Translations under genes and position numbers: made by a program
IMG/VR virus record: IMGVR_UViG_3300048882_000450
Coordinates: 1 to 42,252 of that record
Source: a virus
Lineage: Duplodnaviria; Caudoviricetes
Reading direction: 5' to 3' (one strand)
Length of the DNA: 42,252 nucleotides
In this document: positions 16,112 to 40,534 of the stretch, piece after piece
Layout of the letters: each line of letters begins with the position of its first letter
Position numbering within the stretch: position 1 is the stretch's first letter
The notes under the pieces: generated by a model
Told to the model about the DNA's origin: nothing
Databases searched by the model: none
Seen by the model: the letters and a program-made list of their open reading frames with translations, nothing else

Positions 16112-16450
16112 CTATTTATCTGCAAGTGTCACTTTTTTTAAAGCTTCTTGTAAAATAAGATAGACATTATTAGAAGAATAGATATCAACACATATACTTC
16201 TACTTGTTTTTTTAATATTATCTATAGTTTCATCTATTAATGAATAATCTGCATTATAGACATCTGTAATTATAGGTTTTTTGAATGATTCAGTTTTTTC
16301 AATTCTATCTAACTGCTTTTTAAATGCTGCGTTAGATGATTTTTTTGTGGATTTTACCTTAGTTCCACTAGGTAACTTTATTTTCTTTGCATCTTCTGTT
16401 GTATGAGTTCCCTTACAGGAATCATCACATCTATGAGTTTTTTTCGTCAA
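16112..16450 (-). CDS. Hypothetical protein coupled to the portal gene
   Basis: ATGA overlap with the portal stop codon. Confidence 0.6.
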   Translation of the reverse strand: MTKKTHRCDDSCKGTHTTEDAKKIKLPSGTKVKSTKKSSNAAFKKQLDRIEKTESFKKPIITDVYNADYSLIDETIDNIKKTSRSICVDIYSSNNVYLILQEALKKVTLADK

Positions 16451-18312
16451 TTTTTATCCTCCTCTTCATCTTCCCACTTTCTAACCATGTCAAACTCATT
16501 CTGTACAATATTACGTGCTTCTCTTACTGTTATTCCTGTAAACTTTCTAAGTTCATCGACTGTTTTAGTTTTCTTCCAGTTGTAATCCATTGCTGATTGT
16601 AATGTCTTTTTTACCACATCAAAGTTATCAGGTGTTATTCCAGTAGGAAAGTTCTTCTGTGAGAGAGAAGTTCCACTTCCTGAACTTGGGTGTCCTTGTG
16701 CAACACCACCAATATCAGATGGTCTGTTCTGGTTTGGTTGTCCAGCAAAGTTTTGTCTATTCTCTTCTGGTGCAGCAGTACCTCTACCTCTTCCCATTTG
16801 TAATTCATCTATAGGTTCTGGTATTTGTGATACACTATACTCACCAGTGTGAGTTCTTGTAACTTTGAATCCCATTTGTTGTAGTAAAGCCATATTCTGT
16901 ATTTCTACTCCATCTCTTTGTAGTTCAGATAGTTTATCATTCTCTTCACCTGCTTCTAATCTGAGATCCCAATCATCAACACCCATTAACTCTACAAATT
17001 TCTTAAAGAATGACTTGTATAATATATCTTGTCCCCATTTAACTGCTCTATTAGTAATTGTAACTTGTAATCCTTCCTGACTCCAACCACCTACCATCTC
17101 ACCATAGTACAAAGGTAACACACCATACACTGCACCAATGATTTGTCTTAACTCTTTTCTAATTTCAATGAATTGTAACTCTTGTAATGTACCAGTAAAG
17201 TCTAACCACTGTGCCATGTTTTGTCCACCCTTATCTGATTCAACCATAAGTGGATGTATCATGTATGGGTCTTCGGTGGCTTTCTGTTCTAAAGCATCCC
17301 ATGACTTTCTAAAGGTTTCATAGTTACGTGAAGCAACAACAAGTAATCCTCGTGGTGGTCTCATCTTGTCAAAGTACTTTCTAATATACTCATCCATGTG
17401 AGACAAAGCCATAGCCTTACTCCACACTGCATAAATAGGACTGAACCCGTAAATCAAAGATGGTTTGTATTTTCCTGCTTTCCAAATCACTTCACCTTCA
17501 GCATAAATTACTCTTTTAGGATGTGGTACACCTATGGAATAAACAGAGTTAACTTCAAGTATAGCCTTTAATGCTTTAGCATTACATTTATCACATCTGT
17601 CATTATACAATCTCGCATCCCTGTGCTCAAATCGTGGGCAGACATAAATCTTTTGTCTCTTATCATCATATCCAATTCTACCATCAGAGTCAGCAATCAT
17701 TGCTACTTGTGGTGGGTCTATTCTAAGTAACTCTTTAATCTCTGTCTTTTTATTATCTATCTCACCAGTAATATCATCAATAAAATAATTCTTTAACAAA
17801 AGTAAATATGCATTATCTGCAATCTCTAGATCTCTTTCTAACTGTCTTGCAACGTCTTCTAGATTTTGGGCGTTCCCATTAACAGGTCTATTAATTAAAT
17901 TTTCAATAATCTTTCTGTGTTCAGGTACAGGTGTTCTTAATTCATAACTCTGACAGGAGTCACATTGTACCTTTTGTAGTTTCTTTGGTTCCTCACCTTC
18001 AACTGCTACGTTAGGAGCATACTGAAATTCTTTTGAACAGTTATTACATTTATACTTGAACCGTTCAGTTATCTGCCAACCATTCTTAAACATCTCTCTA
18101 TTTAGAGTCTCAATAGGAATTCGAAGTGCATCAATATTATCAGCCAACTCATAAATCATTATAAGTGGGAATGGAAAAATTGGTAGTTTGGCACCTGTGT
18201 CAGTTGCCATGTATGGCTGGGCGACAGATGGTCTAGAAGTTGACTCTGTATACCCTTTGTTAACATTGCTAAGAGATTTAGTTATACTACTTATCCTAGC
18301 ACGTAATCCCAT
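16447..18312 (-). CDS. Portal protein with Zn-ribbon insertions
   Basis: Portal motifs DLEIADNAYLL, ELLRIDP, YGFSPI, KYFDKMRPPRGLL, ELQFIE and IGAVYGVLP. Lies upstream of the protease and MCP. Confidence 0.85.
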   Translation of the reverse strand: MGLRARISSITKSLSNVNKGYTESTSRPSVAQPYMATDTGAKLPIFPFPLIMIYELADNIDALRIPIETLNREMFKNGWQITERFKYKCNNCSKEFQYAPNVAVEGEEPKKLQKVQCDSCQSYELRTPVPEHRKIIENLINRPVNGNAQNLEDVARQLERDLEIADNAYLLLLKNYFIDDITGEIDNKKTEIKELLRIDPPQVAMIADSDGRIGYDDKRQKIYVCPRFEHRDARLYNDRCDKCNAKALKAILEVNSVYSIGVPHPKRVIYAEGEVIWKAGKYKPSLIYGFSPIYAVWSKAMALSHMDEYIRKYFDKMRPPRGLLVVASRNYETFRKSWDALEQKATEDPYMIHPLMVESDKGGQNMAQWLDFTGTLQELQFIEIRKELRQIIGAVYGVLPLYYGEMVGGWSQEGLQVTITNRAVKWGQDILYKSFFKKFVELMGVDDWDLRLEAGEENDKLSELQRDGVEIQNMALLQQMGFKVTRTHTGEYSVSQIPEPIDELQMGRGRGTAAPEENRQNFAGQPNQNRPSDIGGVAQGHPSSGSGTSLSQKNFPTGITPDNFDVVKKTLQSAMDYNWKKTKTVDELRKFTGITVREARNIVQNEFDMVRKWEDEEEDKN

Positions 18313-18593: not shown

Positions 18594-18773
18594 ATGGTAG
18601 ACTTTGAGTTAAACGATTATAAAACAGTCATACGCTGGTTTGAACTATGTTTTGGTAAAAACCCAGAGGCGTTGGGGATGGATGATAAGAAGACGTTCTG
18701 GAAACTTTCATTTTTATGTGAGGACAAAATTAAAGAGATAAGGGAAGGTCATCCTCCTGAATCTGACGAGTAA
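18594..18773 (+). CDS. 59-aa hypothetical protein (MVDFELNDYKTVIRWFELCFGK...), resembling small Nitrosopumilus proteins
   Basis: Translated by hand; TTTAAA box upstream and a hairpin directly after the stop. The host resemblance is from memory, not a search. Confidence 0.65.
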   Translation: MVDFELNDYKTVIRWFELCFGKNPEALGMDDKKTFWKLSFLCEDKIKEIREGHPPESDE

Positions 18774-18774
18774 G

Positions 18775-18790
18775 TTTTGCGAAGCAAAAC
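18775..18790 (+). terminator. Perfect hairpin GTTTTGC-GAA-GCAAAAC directly after a stop codon
   Basis: 7-bp inverted repeat read directly; terminator function is inferred. Confidence 0.45.
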
Positions 18791-18869
18791 GGAGGTTTAA
18801 TTGAGAGATATATATGGTCAATTTTAGTACATAGGTAAGTTTATATAAGGTATTATATAAAGTATTATA

Positions 18870-18970
18870 GGTGTCAGGGATTACCCTCATACGGTAGCCC
18901 TCTTAACCTATTAATTTAGGTTGATACCTGTAGGGAGAAAAAGTGTAGAGACATTATCTCCCTAACACTT
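18870..18970 (+). ncRNA. tRNA-like RNA lacking a D-arm (CAU anticodon loop), followed by a hairpin/pseudoknot
   Basis: TTTATATA box at 18840, 30 nt upstream. Stems GGTGTCA/TGATACC, TTACC-CTCATAC-GGTAG, ACCTA/TAGGT and TAGGGAGA/TCTCCCTA. Confidence 0.55.
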
Positions 18971-19184
18971 ATATTATGTTTTAACATAGTTGTATTGTGT
19001 CGAAGATCCTATTGTTCTTTTTTTCTTTGTTCTGTTTCGGTACAATCGTCTTAGCTCCACTTGGGATAATAGGTCTTTGGTACTTTTGTAAATCAGATAA
19101 AGAAGAATCTAACATAGTTCAGATAGATCAATATTCACCTTTTACATTAGAAAGTTTAAGGTAAAGACTTATATAATCCTATAT

Positions 19185-19400
19185 ATGATATTATATATGA
19201 AGGGGTGTAAAGGTATTTGTGATAGATTGGGGAGTAATAGACCGTTCGGTGACACTTATGCAAAACACTCTTTCTGTACTAGATGTGATGCGTGGATTTC
19301 ATTAACACTTTTATTGAATAGAAGGTGTCCTTGTTGTAATTTTGCACCAAGGTTTATAGGAAAGAAGAAAAGGATGATTGCTGCATATGCATCACTGTAA
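19185..19400 (+). CDS. Cys-rich Zn-finger protein, paralogue of 40238..40534
   Basis: Pattern CKGICDRL...CTRCDAW...CPCC. Confidence 0.7.
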   Translation: MILYMKGCKGICDRLGSNRPFGDTYAKHSFCTRCDAWISLTLLLNRRCPCCNFAPRFIGKKKRMIAAYASL

Positions 19401-19443
19401 TTTACAGAATACATTTATATAAGGCTTGTTATATACTAATATA

Positions 19444-20470: not shown

Positions 20471-20531
20471 GTGTTTGTTTTAAACCGTAATAATGGATAG
20501 ATATATATAAGGTATTGGATAGAATATATTA

Positions 20532-21137
20532 ATGAAGATAAACACTATTAGTTTAGACACTATTTTAAACAATGTTCGTGTTAATGGTATTTGTTTAGAG
20601 TATACTGGTATGAAACATAGTGGAGGATACGGATCAGTAAAATTTAACAAAGGTAGGTTTTACGCACACAGATTTTTTTACATGGTATATAAAGGAGAAA
20701 TACCAAAAGGTTATGACATAGATCATTTATGTAGGAATAGACTATGTGTAGACCTTGATCATTTAGAAATAGTTACACGTAAAGAAAACCTTAGGCGTGG
20801 AAGAGGAATAGGAGGTAAATTACATATACCCCCCACAACTTGTAAGGATGGTCATACTTTAGTTATTGTGGATAAAAAGAACGGTAAAAGAGGTTGTCCT
20901 GTTTGTATAAAAATAGGTTTAATTAGGAGAAATAATGGTATACTAATTTTAGATATACAGTGTAGAAATGGTCATAAGCGTACCCTCCAAAATACAGGGT
21001 ATAGTAAAAATTCCATGACTGGTAATATGACTAGATATTGTAGAGACTGTGTTAAGATACGACTTAGAAATAACTACCCTCAGTTTGCAGGTGGTCGACC
21101 AAAGGGTATTTCGAATAAGATTAGGAATAAAGCCTAG
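20532..21137 (+). CDS. HNH endonuclease (HNH_3-like) with two C-terminal CxxGH...CxxC Zn-finger repeats
   Basis: GYG...AHR...IDHLCRNRLCVDLDHLEIVTRKEN; CKDGH...CPVC and CRNGH...CRDC. Confidence 0.9.
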   Translation: MKINTISLDTILNNVRVNGICLEYTGMKHSGGYGSVKFNKGRFYAHRFFYMVYKGEIPKGYDIDHLCRNRLCVDLDHLEIVTRKENLRRGRGIGGKLHIPPTTCKDGHTLVIVDKKNGKRGCPVCIKIGLIRRNNGILILDIQCRNGHKRTLQNTGYSKNSMTGNMTRYCRDCVKIRLRNNYPQFAGGRPKGISNKIRNKA

Positions 21138-21313
21138 CCCCGTAACTCTATTATATATGTATCGTAGTTGTATTAATATTTTTTTCCTGTCTGTAACCTC
21201 TTATTTCCCAAAAACTGTTTTTTTTACATGTGTACTGGGTCTCGCTAACTCGTTCCTGATACACTGTGGATTTGTGCCTAGAAGATATATACATTAGTAG
21301 TGCACAGTAACCT

Positions 21314-21687
21314 TGTAAGCGAGGCAATACACCCTCGTGGTCTTGCATTGGGCTTCATTTCCGACATGATTAGGCTTTGACGAGCGTGTTATAGTGTGAA
21401 CGCTTTGAGCCGAAAAGTTTAGGAAATATGAATCACCACTTTGGATTATCTCTTATAGAGTTTCGAGTGGTTACAAAAGTATTCAAGAGGGTATAAAATG
21501 GTGTTATTCCAATCCAGATTCCCTTATGTCAAAATATCTGAGCCCAGCTAGTTAGTCCTTGCCTTTTCGGTGTCTAGTTTAAAGGACTAGAGTAAACTTG
21601 GTCATTAGGGTAAAACCGAAGGTCAAGGGTTAAAGATTGCTACCTAATGGTAGCACGAGTGTGAGCGTACTACTTACACACTTTTTT
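21314..21687 (+). ncRNA. Unidentified large structured RNA candidate (~370 nt)
   Basis: No credible ORF and higher GC than the flanks. TATA-like box at 21285, at least ten helices with many G-U pairs on the + strand, terminal hairpin plus T6. Confidence 0.6.
21659..21687 (+). terminator. Hairpin GTGTGAG/CTTACAC followed by a T-run
   Basis: Read directly from the sequence. Confidence 0.6.
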
Positions 21688-21928
21688 ACTAAACAGTACG
21701 TACTGACAGTCATAAACTCTTATTGAGAATGACTTCAGGCGTACTAGATTGTAATTACTAAAACTATATAGTTCGTACTACGTACGTACGTATGGTTTTT
21801 TGGTAAATATCAACGGTTTAACCGTGCCTAACATCAATCAAAGTTGTTTCATATACAACAATACTTCTAAGGGATTAGACTATACTGTTGTGTTTGGTTG
21901 TGTGTTAGGTGTTTACAAGTTTATAGTT

Positions 21929-22054
21929 ATGGAACATGACGAAGAACTCTATGCTCAGTACTTTATACAAGGATTGAGCAATATTAAATGTCCTAGACAC
22001 ATACTTGATGTTGATACTGATAGTTGTGCTAAATGTGGACAACATTTGGGTTAA
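21929..22054 (+). CDS. 41-aa Zn-binding microprotein (CPRH...CAKC)
   Basis: ATG-started 3' half of track ORF 21800..22054; its stop lies in the repeat hairpin. Confidence 0.5.
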   Translation: MEHDEELYAQYFIQGLSNIKCPRHILDVDTDSCAKCGQHLG

Positions 22055-22180
22055 AACCCACCTTTTTACTCATGAAGTTAACGAATCTTCAAAACGAACT
22101 TATAGCATGGTCTAAATGGCATAGTAGAGCTATTAATCCAAGTGCTATGAAATTACAGGGTTAAAACCCCACTTTTTACT
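22048..22180 (+). repeat. Two 23-nt direct repeats GGGTTAAAACCC(AC/CA)CTTTTTACT at 22048 and 22158
   Basis: 21/23 identical and 110 nt apart; each is a mini-hairpin plus T-run. Confidence 0.85.
22072..22164 (+). CDS. 30-aa microprotein between the repeats (MKLTNLQNELIAWSKWHSRAINPSAMKLQG)
   Basis: Translated by hand; ATG 2 nt after repeat 1 and stop inside repeat 2. Confidence 0.45.
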   Translation: MKLTNLQNELIAWSKWHSRAINPSAMKLQG

Positions 22181-22593: not shown

Positions 22594-22942
22594 ACTTGAA
22601 GTACTACTCGTGCCTATTGACGAAGGCATTGAGTTATTAGCAACATGTAATAATGGATTTAGTAGACTAGTCAAAACCATACATAACTATGAAGATGATG
22701 AAGGAGATTTTCCATACAGATACATGTTACAAGAAGACCCACGTGATTATTTATTGCGTTTAGATGACAAAGCAGATTTGTTTTTTATGAGTACATTACA
22801 AGTTCAAACTGCGTATAAAAATAGATATACTCAACCATACTCGAATCAAGAGTTACAAAGTTGGACTAAACAATGTGATTTGAAATACAACTCATTGAAA
22901 CGTAGTTATCTTGAAATAATGGAGATAAATAATGACGAGTGA
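22583..22942 (+). CDS. Hypothetical protein
   Basis: SD AGGAG; overlaps both neighbouring genes. Confidence 0.7.
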   Translation: MEIELEVLLVPIDEGIELLATCNNGFSRLVKTIHNYEDDEGDFPYRYMLQEDPRDYLLRLDDKADLFFMSTLQVQTAYKNRYTQPYSNQELQSWTKQCDLKYNSLKRSYLEIMEINNDE

Positions 22943-23927
22943 CTTTACAGTAGGTCATGAAGTCGAAGGTAATATAAGTAAATCTGATATTATTAGAGGA
23001 GACTTTCATCATGACGGTTCAGTAGATGTAGACGGTAATAGTAGTGAATGTAACGGTAGTTGTAGAGACGACTGTGAATGTCGTGACTACTGTGAATGTG
23101 AAAGTTGTAATATATGTGATATATGTCATGATACATGCGATGCCTGTTCATGTGAAGAATGTCGTACATGTTCTAGATGTGATGAGAATATAGATTCATG
23201 TGAATGTGACATGAGAAACCATTCTAATAATGATTGTGAGTCATGTAAAGTAATACAACTTAAGAATCATGATGAATATCTAGCGTGTGATAAATGTAGA
23301 ACACACTTTATAGACAATGAACATGTATACAACTGTGTAACCAACGATAATATGTCACATGAATGTGACTTTGAATGTGGTTGTGAATGTAATTGTGAAT
23401 GTGATTGCTCCAACGGAGAAGGAGATGATGGAGAGGTAGTTAGTAGAATATTACCTGAAGATGAATCAACTAGTTGGCTTGGTGCTAACGAAGATTCAAT
23501 ACTACGTACTAATAATACATGTGGTCATCACATACATGTAGGTGGAATAACAAACCGTGAGTATGCAGTACTAATGGATGTAGACTTTCACAATACACTC
23601 AAAGAAAAACTGTTAAAGTGGGGACATGAGCATAAACTTAAAGTTGACTCATCATTCTTTAGGAGATTAGAAGGTCATAATAGTTTCTGTAAAGATGACT
23701 TTAGACCACTTGAACAAAAGTATGACACAACAAAGTCAAGCCAAAGATATTGCTTTATCAATTATTGCTGGGCATTACATAGAACAGTAGAGATAAGAGT
23801 GCTCCCAGCATTTCAGAAACCAGAGTTAAGAATCAAAGCAAGTAATAAAGTATTAGAAATAATACATACATACTTGGATGAACACAAACCAAAGATACAT
23901 AGTTTAGAAATCAAGGAGGTGATCTAG
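22932..23927 (+). CDS. Putative amidoligase (COOH-NH2 ligase, Amidoligase_2-like) with a Cys-rich insertion
   Basis: Motifs in the expected order: GHEVE, DGS, EVVS, TCGHHIHV, RYCFIN, TVEIR. Confidence 0.8.
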   Translation: MTSDFTVGHEVEGNISKSDIIRGDFHHDGSVDVDGNSSECNGSCRDDCECRDYCECESCNICDICHDTCDACSCEECRTCSRCDENIDSCECDMRNHSNNDCESCKVIQLKNHDEYLACDKCRTHFIDNEHVYNCVTNDNMSHECDFECGCECNCECDCSNGEGDDGEVVSRILPEDESTSWLGANEDSILRTNNTCGHHIHVGGITNREYAVLMDVDFHNTLKEKLLKWGHEHKLKVDSSFFRRLEGHNSFCKDDFRPLEQKYDTTKSSQRYCFINYCWALHRTVEIRVLPAFQKPELRIKASNKVLEIIHTYLDEHKPKIHSLEIKEVI

Positions 23928-23930
23928 AAA

Positions 23931-24794
23931 ATGTGTGTAATAATGTGTATAGATGATGGTAACTATCCATCAAAGAATGACCTCAAAGATGCAGAGGATA
24001 TGAATAGTCATGGTGGCTCAATCGCATGGTTGAATCATGATAAGACTGTATCATATAAGAAAGGCATCAAAGCAAAACAAATCAATAGAATCATCAACAA
24101 ACAGTTGAAGCCTAAAGGAATTAGCACAGCTATCATTCACTTTAGAATAGCTAGTGTTGGTGGTGTTAAAAAGAATCTCAACCACCCGTTTGAGATTAGT
24201 AGTAAGGTAGAGTTAAACATGGAAGCAAGTCACATAACTAAAGATGTGTTGTTTCATAACGGCACGTGGAGTGAGTACGCTGAAGTGTTAGTGAACTACT
24301 TAAAAGGCTGTAAGAAACCACAAACAATACCAAGAGGTAATTATAGTGACAGTAGAATTATGGCTTACCTTGCACATAAGTTAGGAAGAAATGGTATGAA
24401 CAAACTAGTAACAGGTTGGAATAAGATAGCGATACTATCAAGTAAAGGTATAACAAAGTTTGGTGATGGTTGGTGTAAAGTTAATGGTGTGAAGTGTAGT
24501 AATGATTACTTTACAGGCACAGGCTTCCAATCTTTTGGAACTAAGACAACGTTTAATAAACCATTCAATTACATGACTGAACAAATAACTTATCTTAATG
24601 AAGATGAGAAGTTAGAGATGGTTAACCTCATTGATATATATGGAGTGAGTGAGGAAGAAATATCTGATATGTTATCAGATGGGACAAGTATATATGACAT
24701 AGGTAACAGATTAGATTTGGAAGAAGAATTAATGTTACAGAAACATAGTATAGAAGACGAGGTAATGTATTATAATAAGGGGGAATATAAATGA
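23931..24794 (+). CDS. Class II (Ntn) glutamine amidotransferase-like protein
   Basis: N-terminal MC nucleophile, N.HG, HFRIASVG, NHPF, FHNG and SDSR motifs; GGAGGTGA SD. Confidence 0.85.
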   Translation: MCVIMCIDDGNYPSKNDLKDAEDMNSHGGSIAWLNHDKTVSYKKGIKAKQINRIINKQLKPKGISTAIIHFRIASVGGVKKNLNHPFEISSKVELNMEASHITKDVLFHNGTWSEYAEVLVNYLKGCKKPQTIPRGNYSDSRIMAYLAHKLGRNGMNKLVTGWNKIAILSSKGITKFGDGWCKVNGVKCSNDYFTGTGFQSFGTKTTFNKPFNYMTEQITYLNEDEKLEMVNLIDIYGVSEEEISDMLSDGTSIYDIGNRLDLEEELMLQKHSIEDEVMYYNKGEYK

Positions 24795-26884: not shown

Positions 26885-27144
26885 GAGTTGTACACGAATG
26901 GCAGGAGATGATAAGAAATGACACCACTAGAATTTGAGATTAAAAAAATTATAATTAATCATAATTTACATTTAGTCTTGAAAGATTGTGAGTTTAATGG
27001 GGCAACAATGCGTGAGGTTTTACAAAAATTCATTGATGAGGTTTGTGGGTCTTGATATACAGTATGATTTATATTATGTATAATGTATAGTATTATGATG
27101 AATGGTGTAAACGATTCAAATTACTTTGGAGGAAGTGATTATTT

Positions 27145-30600: not shown

Positions 30601-30811
30601 TTTGTCCTCGGTGTAAAAAGAAATATGATAACCCTTGGCAAGAATGTGATAAATGTATTGAAACATTCTACCCTGAAACCTAACGTTCTCAGTATAGTTT
30701 TATACAGGTTGTAAAATCTGTACACAAATTTTTTTGACATATTTGGGTTTTTTCCATGAAAAAAAGACCTTTCTTCGATACATTTAAATGTGGTTAAATA
30801 TTATCTACCAC

Positions 30812-31135
30812 ATGGTAAAATTATTTGTATATGGTACTCTTATGAATGATGAAATAAGAGAAAACATACTAGGAAGAGTAGTAAAAGCCAAACCTGATAC
30901 TTTATGTGGGTATTCGTTAACAAAACACCCAATTCTATCATTATATCCTGTTGTTAAACTAACAGATGGTGAATGTGTTGATGGAATGGTATTTGATGTT
31001 GATGTTGGTGATTTTCCAAGGTTGGATCATTATGAATCACAATTTTATAAAAAAATTAATGTAAAGTTAACTAGTGGTAATGATAGTATGGTTTATGTTG
31101 AAAATAAACATGATCATGATGAGTATTCTAATTAA
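30812..31135 (+). CDS. Gamma-glutamylcyclotransferase (AIG2-like/GGACT family)
   Basis: LFVYGTLM, V.G.VF and LDHYE...Y motifs. Confidence 0.88.
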   Translation: MVKLFVYGTLMNDEIRENILGRVVKAKPDTLCGYSLTKHPILSLYPVVKLTDGECVDGMVFDVDVGDFPRLDHYESQFYKKINVKLTSGNDSMVYVENKHDHDEYSN

Positions 31136-40237: not shown

Positions 40238-40534
40238 CTATATACCATTTCTCTCCCTCATTTTTTTCTTATTAAACCATGTTTTCATTCTAACTTTTTG
40301 ATGACAACACGGACATTTGTTTTTCATGACTATCAAGTTTTTATTACCCCAACACTCACAACACACACAATAATAGTGTGTAGAGTATGGTATTCTATAT
40401 GGTCTCTTCGACTTAAATCTATGGCATAGATTCTTACAGTATTTTGAACCCAGTACTTTACTAGTTGTTCCGTTACCTTTTTTTGGAGGTGTTGATAATG
40501 TATCAAAAACCGTTTTAAATATAATACCTGTCAT
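40238..40534 (-). CDS. Cys-rich Zn-finger protein, paralogue of 19185..19400
   Basis: CKNLCHRF...CVCCECW...CPCC. Confidence 0.65.
   Translation of the reverse strand: MTGIIFKTVFDTLSTPPKKGNGTTSKVLGSKYCKNLCHRFKSKRPYRIPYSTHYYCVCCECWGNKNLIVMKNKCPCCHQKVRMKTWFNKKKMRERNGI

Follow-up and report, generated by a model that had tools for sequence, protein, structure and literature searches.

The window, by which we mean the whole linear virus record of 42,252 nt (estimated completeness 68%), encodes a strongly covarying hairpin, apparently under structural selection, whose stem recurs in several virus lineages and whose apical loop differs from copy to copy. Promoter spacing and base profile predict that the hairpin has a TATA promoter of its own and yields a non-coding RNA of about 95 nt. 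At not quite an even chance, our best explanation of its function is a decoy RNA acting in trans, with a protein-binding stem and a loop that would set specificity. A first-pass annotation had described this region as a D-armless, tRNA-like RNA with a CAU anticodon loop, read as a decoy or a truncated adaptor; a promoter-driven structured RNA is very likely and a decoy role is still the best guess, while the D-armless tRNA, the CAU identity and the link to MetRS or TiaS are not supported.

Structure of the conserved core

The core consists of a 4-bp terminal stem (P1), a GUC/CUUA internal loop, the segments AGGG(A)/(G)CCCU, a bulged U and the pairing UACC/GGUA, on which the apical loop is mounted (Table 1). 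The box at 18840 and the stems, loops and motifs picked out in the first pass are all found in place, and the structured region they suggested is borne out by folding (z -4.3 to -4.7; none of 200 shuffles as stable on the + strand, which is the preferred one).

Table 1. Features of the RNA element and its immediate surroundings in the window
Feature	Position	Strand	Basis
TATA box TTTATATA with A-rich BRE-like stretch, archaeal-type promoter	18835-18847 (box 18840-47)	+	Position profile
P1 5' strand AGGT; predicted start A18869	18869-18872	+	Purine/pyrimidine profile and pairing; start predicted from these
Internal loop 5' side GUC, facing CUUA	18873-18875	+	G.A replaced by U-A in 2 haplotypes
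P2 (AGGG-A) and P3 (UACC) 5' strands, bulged U18881	18876-18885	+	Compensatory variants
Apical loop, variable; here the short allele CUCAUAC	18886-18892	+	Allele comparison
P3 and P2 3' strands (GGUA-G-CCCU), internal loop 3' side CUUA	18893-18905	+	Family alignment
P1 3' strand ACCT, the 'T-arm' 5' strand of the first-pass annotation	18906-18909	+	Haplotype pairing
Clade-specific linker with second copies of TAGGT and ACCT	18910-18929	+	Permits alternative three-way fold
Module A hairpin	18931-18964	+	Covariation in 25 aligned copies
TATA-like box of the next transcription unit	18969-18976	+	Sequence; likely RNA 3' limit
59-aa ORF, function not assigned, directly upstream	18594-18773	+	Context in the portal-linked lineage

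Among 63 core haplotypes, positions 1 to 4 of P1 are paired in 62, 63, 63 and 61, respectively, with 2-5 pair types at each; its sequence was unconstrained by the search pattern and varies freely. P1 pairing amounts to 97-98% at the first four positions and 70% at the fifth. The internal loop above P1 is made up of a G.A and UC/CUU; the search pattern itself accounts for part of the invariance of GUC and CUUA, and model searches added few variants. Further up the stem, AGGG/CCCU is replaced by the compensatory variants AAGG/CCUU, AGAG/CUCU and AAAG/CUUU. The A.G position becomes A-U in 4 and C-G in 2 of the 63 haplotypes, which identifies the U that follows it as a bulge. In 26 aligned short-loop copies, 97.3% of cells are paired and seven pairs show two-sided changes; the covariation score of this alignment is 0.32, whereas shuffles reach 0.13 and slid controls 0.12 at the most, a comparison in which related sequences can exceed the shuffle control through descent. 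G.U pairs are maintained on the + strand. The predicted probability of P1 has a median of 0.98 over 116 copies and is at least 0.5 in 97 of them, and competing pairings for the 3' strand of P1 exist in the window virus and several others.

A 58-aa ORF on the opposite strand (18714-18890, -) overlaps the element; since the loops of relatives differ in length by numbers that would shift its frame, it was regarded as spurious and rejected as a gene. The 59-aa ORF upstream belongs to a family that is found near the RNA in 47 of 119 loci and also in relatives without the RNA.

Promoter and predicted transcript

A profile of 120 copies is A-rich at -38 to -36 and shows a T/A box at -33 to -26 relative to GUC; TATA patterns begin 33-35 nt upstream of GUC in 94 of 123 hits (chance hits included). 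A purine occupies position -4 in 117 of 119 copies and a pyrimidine position -5 in 101 of 119. Based on the TATA spacing and this pyrimidine-purine step, transcription is predicted to start at A18869, so that P1 would open the transcript. At the 3' end, the TATA-like box at 18969-76 likely sets the limit of the RNA; its motif AACACTTATATT recurs at another promoter position in relatives. As a separate observation, a similar TATA-containing 30-mer occurs four times in the window (18840-18869, 19414-19443, 20502-20531 and 27068-27097), and these likely represent one promoter class.

Distribution of the element

A search for related portal loci, blind to the RNA, yielded 54 loci, 39 of which carry the core upstream (37 found by pattern and 2, L031 and L037, by covariance model). 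Eight further loci have enough upstream DNA and lack the core, and seven are too short to judge; of the 47 portal loci that could be assessed, 39 thus have the core and 8 do not, and one clade is without it, which marks the RNA as accessory. A degenerate pattern derived from the portal loci recovered 103 viral loci, at least 120 metagenome loci (about 220 estimated) and 2 GTDB loci. These hits gave 123 distinct copies; L161, L164 (with its identical copies) and L173, which are without a TATA box and have broken pairing, were left out of the counts, leaving at least 120 distinct copies. Of 33 virus records, selected for the motif or the portal, 30 were found by the covariance model to have a copy, 27 of them as a single match and 3 with a weak second match; G003, missed by the model there, carries a copy with a 73-nt loop. 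Generally, there is one element per genome.

The element has no fixed downstream gene and is found in at least four gene neighbourhoods, one of them that of a lineage whose records measure 34-38 kb and contain few of the window genes. It lies within about 1.5 kb of the portal or terminase gene in most long records and 17-25 kb from the portal in G005 and G013. The only protein common to all eight genomes compared is MCM, and no effector gene shared by all carriers was recognised among them. Both GTDB hits of the core pattern are on contigs of bacterial MAGs: L161 was rejected as a chance match, and L162 is a true copy, taken for misbinned virus DNA. There was no archaeal hit of the pattern in GTDB genomes, so no host RNA imitated by the core was identified. 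Annotated phages gave just short chance matches. Rfam 15 contained no match over the element, either for the window (E<=10), for 16 loci at gathering thresholds or for 20 loci at E<=2.

Source virus and likely host

The window encodes a portal protein (16447-18312, -), a major head protein, a tail tube protein, MCM, an Sso10a-like winged-helix protein, an archaeal RadA that scores above the curated cut-off, and a CobS-like AAA ATPase with a VWA partner. Compared with named phage records, the portal matched haloarchaeal tailed viruses only, at about 23%. According to the accessible part of PMC7678222, radA, ATPases and CobS are typical genes of the Marthaviruses of marine and Baikal Thaumarchaeota; the window shares this set with Marthaviruses of Nitrosopumilaceae and is a Marthavirus-like tailed archaeal virus. 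No non-coding RNA is mentioned in that part of the paper, whereas the window virus carries the RNA element. As judged from gene content only, the hosts of the carrier viruses are likely marine ammonia-oxidising archaea. DNA runs containing the window sequence are hydrothermal vent metagenomes; none of the 13 runs listed was an RNA run with this stretch, a result that is neutral as to expression. Metagenomic DNA runs over the region contain further viruses that have the core alone in common.

Several other features of the window were recorded. Small Cys-rich proteins of one family, for which no named family was matched, are encoded at 19185-19400 (+) and 40238-40534 (-); the family occurs in 7 of the 8 genomes compared and lies near the RNA, on either side, in 49 of 119 loci. 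The family is a candidate zinc-binding partner. A free-standing HNH homing-type endonuclease gene is located at 20532-21137 (+), 1.6 kb 3' of the RNA. Past it, 21140-21800 contains few long ORFs, and its apparent counterpart in relatives (L005:2386-2437(-); L010:640-1000(-)) is GC-richer and structured-looking, with a weak second core-model match in G017 and G021 (E about 4e-4). Cys/Asp-rich, class II glutamine amidotransferase-like and gamma-glutamyl cyclotransferase-like proteins, encoded at 22932-24794 (+) and 30788-31135 (+), possibly form a peptide-modification module; they occur in 5-6 of the 8 genomes, the first two also in the small lineage. A near-identical short repeat, GGGTTAAAACCC..CTTTTTACT, at 22051-22068 and 22160-22180 (+), ahead of two successive genes, is likely a shared regulatory site.

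Apparent exchange of apical loops

The 120 copies carry 71 apical loop alleles of 4-73 nt. Seven-nucleotide loops are found in 37 copies (CTAATAC 15, CTTATAC 15, CTAAAAC 4, CTCATAC 2, CTTAAAC 1); all have the form CU-N-A-W-AC, 32 read NAU, and five different triplets are represented. CAU, found in only two of the 120 copies, is a rare allele. Most long loops also end in AC (49 of 65), which makes the AC end part of the scaffold. Many long loops hold inner hairpins kept through compensatory change, and several contain what we take to be AGUA/GAA, GNRA and UUCG elements.

Comparison of loops and flanks points to exchange of the loops as cassettes. In 114 copies with full flanks, there are 24 pairs in which both flanks are at least 85% alike and the loops less than 50% alike, and 19 pairs in which a near-identical long loop sits in flanks less than 70% alike, the pairs not being independent of one another. 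The flanks of L024 and L053, as well as those of L068 and L246, are identical and enclose unrelated loops. It is this combination of unrelated loops in near-identical flanks and the same long loops in unrelated flanks that argues for cassettes. Of 23 upstream clusters with several members, 9 mix short and long alleles. For singleton loop-flank pairs, chimeric assembly has to be reckoned with; both sides of some swaps are seen again in separate contigs (L028 in 4 and L030 in 3; L044 in 2 and L046 in at least 3). Duplication also occurs: the loop of L265 is a partial duplication of the flanks, and L268:264-344 (-) is a tandem of two cores whose loops measure 18 and 4 nt; it looks like a two-unit array and fits selection on dosage.

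Loop sequences were further compared with possible targets. For 63 loops of at least 14 nt searched against 2.1 Mb of loci, mostly from related viruses, exact matches of at least 15 nt numbered 2 observed and 2.2 expected; matches of at least 14 nt numbered 13 as compared with 7.5 expected, including four related loops at one site. Two collection scans with the loops gave six matches, five of them in records already known to carry the scaffold and the sixth, of 20 nt, inside an unrelated protein gene.

3' modules and neighbouring RNA motifs

The hairpin that follows the core in the window, module A, consists of a 7-bp stem, an A-rich/UYA internal loop, a 4-bp stem and a loop U-N(N)-G-A-N-A, a T-loop-like cap; two-sided changes are seen at 7 of 11 pairs in 25 aligned copies. 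By pattern, 42 of 120 cores have module A no more than 120 nt away. Modules B, C, D-F or E follow other cores, and 22 have no module by the same criterion; the 3' modules are interchangeable. Directly 3' of the core are module B in L004, L027 and L175, module C in L009 and L044, and module E in L064 and L148. A single internal-loop motif (AAAG..CGU / ACG-UNA) seems to be present in modules A and B in circularly permuted form. Module D-F (L344-L380, e.g. L355:601-634 +) comprises two hairpins with loops A(A/G)GUC and a hexaloop (A/G)CGUAA, which could pair with the leading CGU; it is either fused to the core or preceded by a TATA box of its own. In an independent scan for this module, 35 of 37 loci had a core within 600 nt, one module stood alone behind its own promoter, and one was a chance match.

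A different conserved motif, GGTGTGAGYTTGCATA followed by a hairpin, AGGACT and another hairpin, lies behind a TATA-like box in 18 of 386 loci (L031:2476-2491(-), L032:1982-1997(-), L047:1562-1577(-), L357:743-758(-) and 14 more). It lies nearby in all eight portal loci that lack the core, and had no Rfam match in the five loci tested.

A proposed decoy in trans and its main rivals

We hypothesize that the invariant stem would bind a host RNA-binding protein and that the choice of host factor would depend on the exchangeable tip loop, in the service of counter-defence or host takeover. Within this reading, the 7-nt alleles, the window copy included, may be the class that imitates an anticodon loop, and many long alleles have small folds of their own. 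Loops would be swapped by homologous recombination between the conserved flanks during co-infection, and many carrier viruses encode RadA. An internal loop and bulge that stay invariant on a stem whose sequence is free to vary are typical of a protein-binding site, and dispensability with fast exchange is typical of host-conflict genes; both suggest a decoy. TATA spacing, the covarying stem, the lack of a fixed gene, the accessory distribution, loop exchange, the L268 duplication and the precedent of established phage decoys point in the same direction. On the other side, the window copy is predicted to favour the fold proposed in the first pass (see below), P1 is modelled with a probability under 0.5 in 19 of 116 copies, and neutral recombination between conserved flanks could have produced the loop mosaics. 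In a broader form, which we consider doubtful, the element would be a retargetable viral RNA platform, in which a host machine is the docking site of the fixed stem, loop cassettes from a library are traded by recombination and 3' modules are plugged in. Its cassettes (anticodon-like, loop-E-like, tetraloop hairpins, guides) would neutralise or redirect host RNA-sensing defences or translation factors.

It is unlikely that the stem alone works, as a scaffold or regulator of some viral or host complex (active, for instance, in transcription, the priming of replication or packaging), with the loop as neutrally spread filler. Such a role would agree with the tolerance of any loop of 4-73 nt, with loops that are plain flank duplications (L265, L268) and with the usual proximity to portal or terminase. 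However, the same long loops are found nearly unchanged, with inner stems kept, in unrelated backgrounds, the portal is distant in G005 and G013, and absence from 8 of 47 relatives argues against an essential step. Packaging RNA of the phi29 pRNA type was rejected on the same absence and broken portal linkage.

An improbable alternative is a guide RNA, whose stem loads into a host or viral effector and whose loop base-pairs with nucleic acid of the host or a rival virus. A constant scaffold with a variable, exchanged insert, one 'short' and many 'long' states, and the single tandem two-unit copy would be expected of such a system, but the searched loci contain no excess of long exact loop matches, lengths vary widely, many loops are self-paired, and MCM alone is present in all eight genomes compared, with no effector common to all carriers recognised. 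Related candidates were likewise rejected: Racr or a mini-CRISPR array (no Rfam match, complementary flanks, inserts of 4-73 nt, one tandem copy only) and box C/D or H/ACA guides (the conserved 3' motif is CUUA, the core has no box C, and the ACA after module A is unconserved).

Anticodon-like features of the window copy

Mimicry of a tRNA or anticodon arm that distracts an anticodon nuclease, a synthetase or TiaS, with a D-armless three-way fold in this clade, is very improbable. The 7-nt loops share the uniform, anticodon-loop-like pattern given above, and most read NAU; module A has its T-loop-like cap, and the proposed three-way fold is indeed the predicted minimum-energy structure of the window copy, 4.8 kcal/mol more stable there than the family fold, with a P1 probability of about 0. 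This fold uses GGTGTCA (18870-76) and TGATACC (18922-28) as acceptor, TTACC-CTCATAC-GGTAG (18881-97) within GGG/CCC, and ACCTA-TTAATT-TAGGT (18906-21) as T-arm. In the family as a whole, however, 83 of 120 copies have no 7-nt loop, and 7/7 acceptor pairing is available in just one of 114 copies with full flanks, that of the window virus. The T-arm strand ACCT is the 3' strand of P1 family-wide and forms the hairpin only in the window virus, where the linker repeats the P1 strands, and in L026, which has a similar linker. There is no CCA at the element and no T-loop in the supposed T-arm, and the AC loop end belongs to the scaffold. An unconserved loop between conserved flanks had been named in the first pass as a refuting outcome; it is the flanks that are conserved and covarying and the loop that is not, which counts against the tRNA reading. 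The D-armless tRNA is an alternative local to one clade and not the conserved form, and P1 would form first during transcription.

The suggested pseudoknot between AAGTGT (18941-46) in the second hairpin (TAGGGAGA 18931-38 / TCTCCCTA 18957-64) and ACACTT (18965-70) was abandoned. AAGTGT is already paired, since both RNAfold and the 25 aligned copies resolve the supposed loop into an internal loop and an inner stem, AGTGT/ACATT; the pseudoknot is not conserved, and ACACTT overlaps the TATA-like box at 18969-76. That tRNA scanners would miss the RNA was correct, and a canonical tRNA was rejected: ARAGORN reported no genes in the window and seven related genomes, and there was no Rfam tRNA match. 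With relaxed settings, ARAGORN made only scattered calls in the portal loci, almost all of which contained long introns; among the matches listed, none coincided with the element. A D-armless tRNA was rejected on the acceptor, loop (five triplets among the 37 short loops) and T-arm data above, and an archaeal intron or split-tRNA half of the bulge-helix-bulge kind on inspection, the element having a one-base bulge and a 2x3 loop, and trimmed long loops missing the 7-nt consensus.

D-armless tRNAs include the mitochondrial tRNA-Ser type, and archaeal CAU tRNAs are tRNA-Ile2/Met(CAU). A 7-nt CU-NNN-A loop on a short stem is shared with these in the 37 short-loop copies, and the three-way fold is possible in the window copy. 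The element differs from D-armless tRNAs in its unconserved acceptor, T arm and anticodon, its mostly longer loops and the missing CCA.

A small ribozyme, or a switch alternating the P1 3' strand with a downstream strand, is barely credible: it would account for a variable peripheral loop about a fixed core and for the competing P1 pairings, but there is no Rfam match and no fixed downstream gene, and the 3' modules differ. Equally hard to credit is a DNA-level element (a single-stranded DNA hairpin, origin or recombination site), to which a position near the cumulative GC-skew minimum of the contig and a recombination hot spot would be suited, but the skew tracks the switch of coding strand, the TATA distance is fixed, G.U pairs are kept on the + strand and the genome position varies. 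Known self-cleaving ribozymes and riboswitches were rejected for lack of Rfam covariance model matches (16 loci at gathering, 20 loci at E<=2). Also rejected, on comparison by eye and by Rfam, were likenesses to the RNase P P4 helix, 23S helices 69-71, the MS2 operator, the c-di-GMP-I riboswitch, T-box stem I and the hairpin ribozyme, which do not reproduce the covarying pairing.

Relation to known small RNAs

Ammonia-oxidising archaea drive much of marine nitrification. A single-copy covarying RNA across several of the virus lineages would be ready bait for a host partner, and a partner found that way would give a route to archaeal defence or translation-control factors. Whole-loop exchange, like the exchange of tail-fibre tips, would be a new mode of RNA diversification if loops set specificity. 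The region around the element holds several more unlisted RNA motifs.

Topic searches of the literature returned no description of non-coding RNAs in viruses of ammonia-oxidising archaea, and four 13-nt motif strings did not occur in the papers searched. In the tables of Fremin, Bhatt and Kyrpides 2023 (PMC10690425), DNAVirus_8135, 8230 and 8694 list Thaumarchaeota among predicted hosts; DNAVirus_8135 (64 nt, 4 sequences), compared by table entry and not by alignment, could be a piece of the element system, and the readable supplement tables give no such motif and no function.

The element resembles Y RNAs in its constant terminal stem with a small internal loop and bulge and in having variable loops beyond. 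Y RNAs are partners of Ro60, and no Ro60/TROVE domain was found among the 60 window proteins scanned; the stem sequence also differs from that of Y RNAs, and there is no Rfam match.

The pseudo-ToxI repeats of phage TE are counted among phage RNA decoys. Established non-coding decoys of phages are exemplified by Racr, the solitary CRISPR repeats (PMC10651486), and mimicry of the Cas9 guide by phages is described as well (bioRxiv 10.64898/2026.06.03.729762, 10.64898/2026.06.01.729453). Similar to these decoys, the element is a small, virus-encoded and accessory non-coding RNA, and it has a tandem duplication in L268. In contrast to them, it is unlike a CRISPR repeat or any other Rfam family, its flanks are the arms of one stem instead of direct repeats, and its variable part is an exchangeable apical loop. 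It belongs with the small RNAs encoded by viruses; should the loops prove to be functional cassettes, it may well represent a new kind.
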